Virus record (IMG/VR): IMGVR_UViG_2698536687_000001 | Source of the DNA: a virus | Lineage: Duplodnaviria; Heunggongvirae; Uroviricota; Caudoviricetes | Strand: one strand, 5' to 3' | DNA length: 64,000 nt | Shown here: positions 59,354-59,541 of the stretch, one piece after another | Position numbering within the stretch: position 1 is the stretch's first letter | Layout of the letters: every line of letters begins with the position of its first letter | The notes under the pieces: model-generated | Databases searched by the model: none | Seen by the model: the letters and a program-made list of their open reading frames with translations, nothing else | Told to the model about the DNA's origin: nothing | Translations under genes and position numbers: made by a program

Positions 59354-59380
59354 GAAAAAAACGCCCACCCGAAGATGGGC
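59354..59380 (-). terminator. Rho-independent terminator (minus strand) downstream of dmt
   Basis: Minus strand GCCCATCTTCGGGTGGGC followed by GTTTTTTT. Confidence 0.55.
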
Positions 59381-59504
59381 AAACTGGAAGCTCGTAACGC
59401 ACTTCGGCGTTGCCACTTAGGCGCATGGTCAACCTGGCAACTCGGTGGTTTGTCTGGGAGGACTAGGCCCAGCCATGCTTACCGCCGCGCCTGTCGCGGC
59501 TAAC

Positions 59505-59541
59505 AGCTAAATCGCTCTATAAATCACGATTCATTGAGGCG
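59505..59541 (-). promoter_or_regulatory. C1 operator (perfect 17-mer) overlapping a minus-strand promoter-like sequence
   Basis: AAATTTATTAGAGCAAT at 59525-59541; on the minus strand TTGCTC-N17-TAATAT. Confidence 0.5.

Follow-up and report, generated by a model that had tools for sequence, protein, structure and literature searches.

We analyzed a short segment of a 64,000-nucleotide stretch of phage DNA (Caudoviricetes; IMG/VR record IMGVR_UViG_2698536687_000001), referred to below in its full length as the window. The segment lies just beyond the gene dmt and carries, read along the minus strand, an operator for the repressor C1, a promoter, a structured RNA region closed by an intrinsic terminator, an element resembling transfer-messenger RNA (tmRNA) and the remnant of a tRNA gene (Table 1). 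Its DNA is 98–99% identical to that of phage P1 and the P1 relatives RCS47, JL22, P7, SJ46 and D6, and 100% identical to that of the E. coli plasmid prophage pZBEC21_01. The locus is not new: what the segment holds is the control region of the P1 ban operon with its leader, both already annotated. The homology to P1 extends from position 58863 upward. It stops inside the first tRNA, and the window genes below that position are unrelated to P1, with baseplate-like genes on the plus strand. In the reference P1 (AF234172), the leader is followed on the same strand by tRNA-Asn, tRNA-Thr, tciABC, trnI and ban. None of ban, tciA, tciB and plp was found across the whole 64-kb window, and the P1-derived products that remain downstream of Pban are non-coding RNAs only. 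Since ban has been lost and only these RNAs are left after Pban, the reading as a stand-alone RNA fits better here than in P1. The dmt open reading frame (ORF; 59562–62849) encodes 1095 aa in the window and 754 aa in P1; an E. albertii plasmid and pZBEC21_01 have the 1095-aa form annotated as well. The dmt stop codon (59562–59564) falls inside half-site a of the C1 operator.

Table 1. Features on and around the ban leader, in window coordinates
Feature	Position	Strand	Details and basis
C1 operator half-site a (Obana, former Op72a)	59555–59571	−	perfect 17-mer ATTGCTCTAATAAATTT, no mismatch; also labeled in AF234172
C1 operator half-site b (Obanb, former Op72b)	59544–59560	+	2 mismatches; overlaps half-site a
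Promoter P1ban	59542–59570	−	−35 TTGCTC 59565–59570, 17-nt spacer, −10 TAATAT 59542–59547; sequence and AF234172 label
5′-proximal hairpin of the predicted transcript	59510–59531	−	AAUCGUGAUUUAUAGAGCGAUU; sequence and minimum-free-energy fold
Conserved structured RNA domain, ~100 nt	59404–59503	−	covariance model R1, 94.1 bits, E=5e-21; covariation
Helix H1	59485–59499	−	CCGCG/CGCGG; RNAalifold
Helix P2	59481–59484 with 59443–59446	−	CGGU with ACCG (family CGGY/RCCG); RNAalifold
Tentative pseudoknot	59473–59478 with 59423–59428	−	GCAUGG with CCAUGC (family GYAUGG/CCAURC)
Helix H2	59454–59472	−	variable stem and CU-rich loop; RNAalifold
Helix H3	59409–59441	−	GUUGYC/GRCAAC; RNAalifold
P1-type variable linker (candidate seed)	59381–59408	−	GCCGAAGUGCGUUACGAGCUUCCAGUUU, U-rich end beside terminator; differs from DicF and at least 8 other module types
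Intrinsic terminator	59355–59380	−	stem-loop GCCCAUC-UUCG-GGUGGGC 59363–59380, G 59362, U7 59355–59361; kept in P1, P7, D6 and pEC361
tmRNA-like RNA	59154–59353	−	same leader, after the terminator; tag frame 59261–59293 (ANDDLMMVAA*), structured flanks
Truncated hybrid tRNA remnant	58834–58888	−	5′ part of P1 tRNA-Asn, tRNA-Thr-like anticodon arm, no T arm

An earlier interpretation made from the letters alone, the sequence-only reading, had proposed a C1-controlled small RNA at this place, with a perfect operator at 59525–59541. That segment reads CACGATTCATTGAGGCG and holds no operator. The perfect operator does exist, 30 nt away, as half-site a. C1 sites with up to three mismatches occur 14 times in the window, against 0.31 expected from shuffled sequences. 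Half-site a is overlapped by a second half-site in the opposite orientation, and the two lie over the −10 and −35 hexamers, a bivalent layout that is the same as in AF234172. In that record the site is labeled as ‘divalent C1-controlled operator Obanab; corresponds to former Op72ab; controls expression of ban’. The minus-strand promoter TTGCTC-N17-TAATAT, which the sequence-only reading had recognized, coincides with the annotated ‘sigma 70 promoter P1ban’ and has identical hexamers; the record adds a predicted second promoter, P2ban. P7 (AF503408) is annotated likewise, and NC_005856 also carries an annotation of the P1 ban control region. The ban promoter and operator were reportedly mapped by the Schuster laboratory in 1987–1989, together with work on C1 binding and repression. 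The annotated bivalent Op72ab/Obanab and P1ban support the view that this promoter would be under C1 control, and transcription would be expected to start near 59535.

The first intrinsic terminator beyond the dmt stop codon is the one at 59355–59380. Its GC-rich stem of 8 bp is closed by a UUCG loop and followed by T7, so the strong terminator that had been placed at 59354–59380 is confirmed within one nucleotide. The distance from the operator to the terminator had been given as about 140 nt; counted from the predicted start near 59535 up to the last U of the tract, it is about 181 nt. The module in front of the end of the RNA consists of AGUUU, then GCCCAUCUUCGGGUGGGC, then G and U7, which is the form of an Hfq-type small RNA. 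No conserved ORF was found on either strand. The T run and the hairpin loops differ in length between close relatives, so that the short ORFs that exist change both their frame and their extent. A protein-coding reading of either strand is thereby ruled out, in agreement with the earlier statement that the interval has no credible ORF. Minimum-free-energy folds of the whole RNA gave a z of about −1.7; they were inconsistent between P1 and Qin and hence uninformative.

Comparison of relatives revealed a conserved structured domain of about 100 nt within this RNA. Alignment A1 holds 22 diverse copies from P1-like and lambdoid phages, and the covariance model R1 was built from it. Searched over the window, R1 gave one credible match, at the leader, and the other listed match reached 5.6 bits (E=9). 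The sequence of the window is itself part of the R1 seed alignment, so that its match is partly circular; an independent blastn similarity to lambdoid phages agrees with it. RNAalifold run on A1 independently gave four helices. In A1, 97.4% of the cells form the predicted pairs, against 24–57% with slid partners; compensatory double changes occur at three pairs. When 96 copies were aligned to R1, 97% were paired as compared with 35–62% after sliding, and 5 of the 20 pairs were changed on both sides, figures that come from an alignment fitted to the model. Helix H2 varies most visibly, with the forms CUGGG/CCCAG, CGGGG/CCCCG, CUGGGG/CUCCAG, CAGGUG/CACCUG and GGGU/ACCC. A loop-loop pseudoknot is tentatively proposed within the domain. 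At its variable pair, U-A was found in 50 sequences, U-G in 3 and C-G in 2, and C-A was never found. The paired hairpins GTTGCC...GGCAAC and CCGCG...CGCGG, which the sequence-only reading had singled out, are the helices H3 and H1. They go beyond chance, since both belong to a domain that shows compensatory changes across its relatives; the covariation is modest in a narrow family. Neither the domain nor the 3′ module of P1 is covered by any Rfam family, in searches of the region at gathering thresholds and at E≤10. The matches returned were at chance level (RyhB, isrB and Ysr49), plus a nuoG match on the opposite strand.

The domain links the P1 leader to the DicF locus of lambdoid prophages. 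In sensitive blastn searches, the window segment 59405–59499 is 75–79% identical to dozens of lambdoid phages. In those phages the matching ~95 nt directly precede DicF and, further on, dicB, with ydfC-like genes on their other side. The part shared by P1 and the lambdoid phages is, as these alignments place it, the sequence before DicF and not DicF itself. In K-12, R1 matches positions 2259–2360 of our Qin locus L006 with 125 bits, and dicF occupies 2383–2435. Northern blots of K-12 Qin revealed DicF species of 190 nt and 53 nt (PMC10448788). The longer one has a 5′ end made by RNase III and a 3′ end at the dicF terminator, and RNase E then yields the 53-nt form (PMC10448788); Ragunathan et al. 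2023 attribute the 190-nt RNA to Faubladier et al. 1990 (PMC10448788). From the R1 and dicF coordinates, the 190-nt RNA would start about 10 nt before the domain, and by this count it is built of a lead of about 10 nt, the domain, a linker of 22 nt and DicF. In the 190-nt species, the domain forms the 5′ body. AF234172 carries a ‘dicF-like region’ at 68791–68892 of the record, equivalent to about 59345–59447 of the window, over the hairpin and the terminator; the label is said to come from the P1 genome paper of 2004. This name is imprecise: P1 shares the 5′ body of long DicF, and a block of ftsZ by the P1 RNA should not be assumed. In the same lambdoid interval, between dicF and dicB, we observed on the minus strand of L003 (2218–2427) an Rfam STnc100 match that stays below threshold, with 40.1 bits where 47 are needed for gathering. 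The match is absent from P1 and suggests another putative structured RNA in the lambdoid dicF-dicB interval.

The domain is followed by interchangeable 3′ modules. In all 92 family members examined, a GC hairpin and a T run lie downstream; 76 of these terminators were found by a simple script and the 16 with long loops by eye. The hairpin and T run stand within about 20–110 nt of every copy, and the sequence in between differs. At least nine distinct seed/terminator modules were distinguished after the domain, the types being classical DicF, a DicF variant, cdtI, Apl, L034, L045, L061, L069, L108, P1 and the short pEC361 form. At the 3′ end of each stand a U-rich stretch, a hairpin and a U tail, as would be expected of small RNAs that bind Hfq. 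Conservation is higher in the domain than in the seeds after it. P1 and P7 have a near-identical P1 seed, even though they differ strongly in H2. A part of this seed, GCUUCCAGUUU (59381–59391, minus strand), is a perfect 11-nt complement of AAACUGGAAGC, located at −17 to −7 of E. coli K-12 nuoG, in its ribosome-binding region (about 10173–10183 in L254). This complementarity falls within RF01748, the nuoG motif of Rfam; by estimate, chance alone would yield about one match of the kind, and it is broken in the variant seeds; nuoG is therefore a lead only as a candidate target of the P1 seed.

We then assessed how widely the domain is distributed. Of the 5426 complete genomes of E. coli, 4242 (78%) carry it, at 8602 places in all, 504 of which are on plasmids. 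For 12 domain-bearing records that we listed, no feature is annotated at the match, save one ‘hypothetical protein’. A pattern scan of bacterial genome contigs with GCGCGGCGGYAAGYATG returned 120 loci, nearly all of them chance matches in GC-rich genomes, and E. albertii provided the sole true member of the domain family. R1 gave no match in D6, in the HK022 put region or in the roughly 118 chance pattern matches from other bacteria. As far as these searches reach, the domain is a very common, unannotated and structurally conserved RNA that is absent from Rfam.

We consider it probable, on balance, that the segment comprises the promoter-operator and the first ~180 nt of the C1-repressed ban leader, and that this leader doubles as an RNA of the long-DicF type. 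Once the bivalent Op72ab is free of C1, RNA polymerase would start at P1ban near 59535. It would transcribe a short 5′ hairpin, the multi-helix domain of about 100 nt, a single-stranded P1-specific linker of 28 nt ending in UUU, and the terminator. Transcripts that stop there would yield an RNA of about 181 nt, which would correspond in P1 to the ‘long DicF’ of 190 nt in lambdoid prophages. P1 would make this RNA by initiating it directly, and would not have RNase III cut it from a polycistronic mRNA. Polymerases that pass the terminator would go on to transcribe the tmRNA-like RNA and the tRNAs; in the reference P1, tciABC, trnI and ban would follow. The 3′ module is shaped like that of an Hfq-type base-pairing small RNA; a dependence on Hfq and an action in trans are presumed, as are the accumulation of the P1 RNA and any processing of it. 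With a seed unlike that of DicF, the RNA probably does not target ftsZ in the way that DicF does. Of the C1-controlled small RNA that the sequence-only reading had put forward, the C1 promoter, the terminator and the non-coding structure have stood, and the idea of an unrecognized stand-alone gene has given way to the annotated ban leader.

Several observations weigh against this interpretation. The hexamers of P1ban match the consensus at only 7 of 12 positions, and a generic promoter scan makes no call. The covariation is modest, as expected of so narrow a family, and the pseudoknot has one independent double change. The seed is altered in L104, in the E. albertii plasmid and in pEC361, which argues against one fixed target in trans. 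D6 keeps the terminator without the domain or the seed. No P1 transcript data for this RNA were found in the accessible literature, and the terminator could simply end dmt transcripts. To these must be added the results obtained with the DicF model and with ftsZ, which also bear on the idea that the P1 RNA is a true DicF orthologue blocking division by pairing with the ribosome-binding site of ftsZ. The annotation ‘dicF-like region’, the same place relative to the domain, the same general form of seed and terminator, and a faint likeness between UUCCAG..UUUGCC in P1 and UUCUGG..UUUGGC in DicF speak for such an orthologue. However, the Rfam DicF family RF00039 (gathering score 48 bits) has no match in 59300–59600, even at E≤10; the same model detected DicF with 76.7 bits in phage mEp460 and with 58.9 bits in L039. 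The region of DicF that pairs with ftsZ lies in its long terminator loop, in place of which P1 has only UUCG. The duplex energy of the P1 RNA with ftsZ (−100 to +60) was no better than that of shuffled sequences, 72% of which were at least as good, in a measure (RNAduplex on long sequences) that is non-discriminating, since even DicF itself was equalled by 20% of the shuffles. Inspection by eye showed no seed-level complementarity to ftsZ in the P1 RNA. We thus regard an orthologue of DicF acting on ftsZ as very unlikely. A shade less credible still is the view that no dedicated RNA exists, that the terminator belongs to dmt and that the conserved sequence is a passenger of phage recombination. 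It can point to the position of the terminator as the first one after the dmt stop codon and to the mosaic nature of the region, where the edge of the D6 homology falls exactly at the terminator. It is opposed by the annotated promoter and operator controlling ban, which stand between that stop codon and the terminator, by the retention of the interval in the 4242 E. coli genomes with helices kept by compensatory changes, and by the homologous RNA that accumulates in K-12 (PMC10448788).

The main rival is a leader that acts mainly in cis. The terminator would then be an attenuator of ban, the domain would be a put-like antiterminator or an element for processing or stability, and the terminated RNA would be a by-product. 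The device would let downstream genes be expressed, namely the tRNAs, tci and ban in P1 and dicB in the lambdoid phages. Such a role is compatible with the production of a long-DicF-type RNA; as the principal function of the leader we hold it to be rather unlikely, yet well ahead of the two preceding alternatives. The domain is promoter-proximal in a repressor-controlled early operon, in P1 by annotation, and precedes a terminator that requires readthrough. K-12 makes both ydfABC-dicF and ydfABC-dicFB-ydfD transcripts (PMC10448788), in phage cdtI the domain begins about 360 bp after cI with no ORF of the size of N in between, the small proteins upstream in Qin-type operons have no known function, and the better conservation of the domain than of the seeds also fits. 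Against it, the similarity to putL of HK022 is limited to GCGCGGCGG, and R1 has no match in the PL-putL region (L011/L012). The domain was never found without an adjacent small-RNA-like module, a fact for which a role as precursor or scaffold would account equally well, and D6-like elements retain the terminator and the downstream block without the domain. A broader proposal, for which we would claim slightly less, is that the domain represents an unrecognized class of structured RNA, a cis-acting device of repressor-controlled early operons coupled to interchangeable seeds. By analogy, it might be an RNA-only antiterminator or modulator of readthrough like HK022 put, or else a scaffold for processing or stability, and these examples we put forward with the same reserve. 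If this were true, the domain, the tmRNA-like RNA and the tRNAs would together make the Pban leader a set of non-coding RNA devices arrayed under the control of C1. Whichever function prevails, a long-DicF-type RNA doubling as the ban leader is the interpretation that we favor. The analysis adds to the known annotation an exact definition of the conserved part and two unannotated RNA elements. P1 would be a clean system for studying the domain, with one promoter, the thermosensitive repressor allele c1.100 and 32 nt between the start and the domain.

The second of these elements, the tmRNA-like RNA, directly follows the terminator. Its tag region, with a tmRNA-like resume context, reads UAAAU GCA AAC GAU GAU CUG AUG AUG GUA GCG GCC UAA and has 10 codons without a start codon. 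The same element was found in 258 phage records of unrelated groups, among them Drexlerviridae, Schitoviridae, Ackermannviridae, Skatevirus and phages of Klebsiella, Serratia and Vibrio. Other loci that we inspected are L256 (1501–1608), L257 (1501–1662), L258 (1501–1569) and L259 (1501–1579). The element lies just upstream of annotated tRNA genes in P1 and in two of the four other loci inspected, and the inspected loci are unannotated at the element except for occasional calls of a hypothetical protein. The tag frame comprises 10 codons and a stop in all of 130 loci, with 16 variants such as ANDDVVLMAA, ANEEMYLAVA, ANDEQFLAVA and ANDNTFLAVA. They follow the pattern AN[DE][DEN]xx[LM]x[AV]A, one locus excepted, which ends in P; the tag of E. 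coli tmRNA is ANDENYALAA. RNAalifold on 13 diverse copies gave 26 pairs, 9 of them with compensatory changes, and one hairpin encloses the stop codon. The element of the window has sub-threshold matches to two Rfam tmRNA families. Scores against the Rfam tmRNA families were 14–33 bits, with gathering scores of 47–84, and four further phage lineages were also sub-threshold. ARAGORN called a resume consensus and a tag at a relaxed threshold only, with two incompatible solutions. A tRNA-like domain with acceptor stem, T arm and CCA end was not found, and ARAGORN at default settings called none of the 130 loci and no tmRNA in the window. An exhaustive survey of ssrA in the RefSeq bacterial viruses and plasmids in 2014 listed only mycobacteriophages and Bacillus phage G (PMC4131195). 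Our data suggest that a device with a relation to ribosome rescue is present beside the tRNA genes of many enterobacterial phages that are not related to one another, and this may matter more than the leader RNA itself.

Some further observations concern the RNA clusters to which this element belongs. Inverted repeats CACAACAGGUAAGAGCAUUG ... CAGUGCUCUUUCCGUUGUG surround units of phage tRNA and non-coding RNA clusters in L262–L264, L273, L289, L307 and L323, and they look as if they formed long processing stems. The motif GGUAAG.AU.G is shared by these repeats and the DicF-precursor domain. In the N4-like phage Uz-1 (L257, 1674–1749), a ‘tRNA-Cys’ directly after the tmRNA-like RNA is unrecognized by the Rfam tRNA model, and its T arm shows a weak match to RF00023 positions 347–363 (E=0.007). 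As for the window, the tRNA-like gene that had been named as the neighbor of the small RNA is a truncated remnant. Its first ~26 nt are those of P1 tRNA-Asn, a tRNA-Thr-like anticodon arm, CUGCCUUGUAAGCAG, follows, and the T arm and the 3′ end are gone. It scores 26.7 bits with the Rfam tRNA model, below the gathering score of 29, and ARAGORN at default settings found no tRNA in the 64-kb window, including 58834–58888.

Two known systems resemble the P1 leader in organization. AgvB and AsxR are phage anti-sRNAs (RNAs directed against small RNAs) of a modular family with one constant and one variable part (PMC4104026). The likeness resides in a conserved part joined to interchangeable prophage seeds, and in CACAACA, the GcvB target consensus, which occurs in several lambdoid linkers; the P1 linker does not contain it. 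AgvB, however, lies 3′ of PR′ at a moron site, its 3′ part is conserved and its 5′ part variable, and there is no sequence relation. A relation to AgvB/AsxR is thus ruled out, the locus being different; among the modules of the present family, Rfam recognizes only the DicF ones, and the cdtI-, Apl-, L034- and L108-type modules are unrecognized. We also noted CACAACA, the GcvB R1 seed target consensus used by AgvB, in non-DicF linkers of L004 (about 2440–2500, minus strand), L010, L014, L034 and L108, and the lambdoid modules bearing it may be GcvB sponges. The put RNAs of HK022 (putL and putR) are RNA-only processive antiterminators (PMC9378689). They too are structured RNAs just after a repressor-controlled early promoter and before terminators, which allows a possible functional analogy only. 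They measure about 70 nt, with two stem-loops and a triplex, whereas the P1 domain has about 100 nt, four helices and a possible pseudoknot. A homology was ruled out after putL had been located in HK022 by means of the published primers, the only sequence in common being GCGCGGCGG and R1 giving no match.

The remaining comparisons are with the closest relatives. DicF pairs through its 3′ region with the ribosome-binding site of ftsZ (PMC5069750). The P1 module occupies the same slot after the domain as DicF (RF00039), and both have a Rho-independent terminator after a U-rich stretch, in the form typical of Hfq-binding RNAs. P1 differs in failing the family model, in its seed and in having a stem-loop of 18 nt in place of the long DicF hairpin. 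The ban control region of P1 itself is 98.5–98.7% identical in DNA and has the same 17-mer, second half-site, hexamers and overlap with the dmt stop codon; the window differs from it by a remodelled operon, in which the P1 homology ends at 58863, the four genes named above are absent and dmt is longer. With regard to the long DicF of Qin, the P1 RNA would have its 5′ end set by the start at P1ban, which precedes the domain by 32 nt, and not by RNase III. P1 does not have the 53-nt DicF core, replaced by an unrelated shorter module, nor the loop that pairs with ftsZ, and inspection by eye, made with no dedicated tool, showed no obvious RNase E site in the P1 RNA. The two RNAs nevertheless share the same 5′ domain of about 100 nt, the same order of domain, linker or seed and terminator, and a similar length (about 181 nt as compared with 190 nt), and in both cases they stand in a repressor-controlled early operon with genes beyond the terminator.

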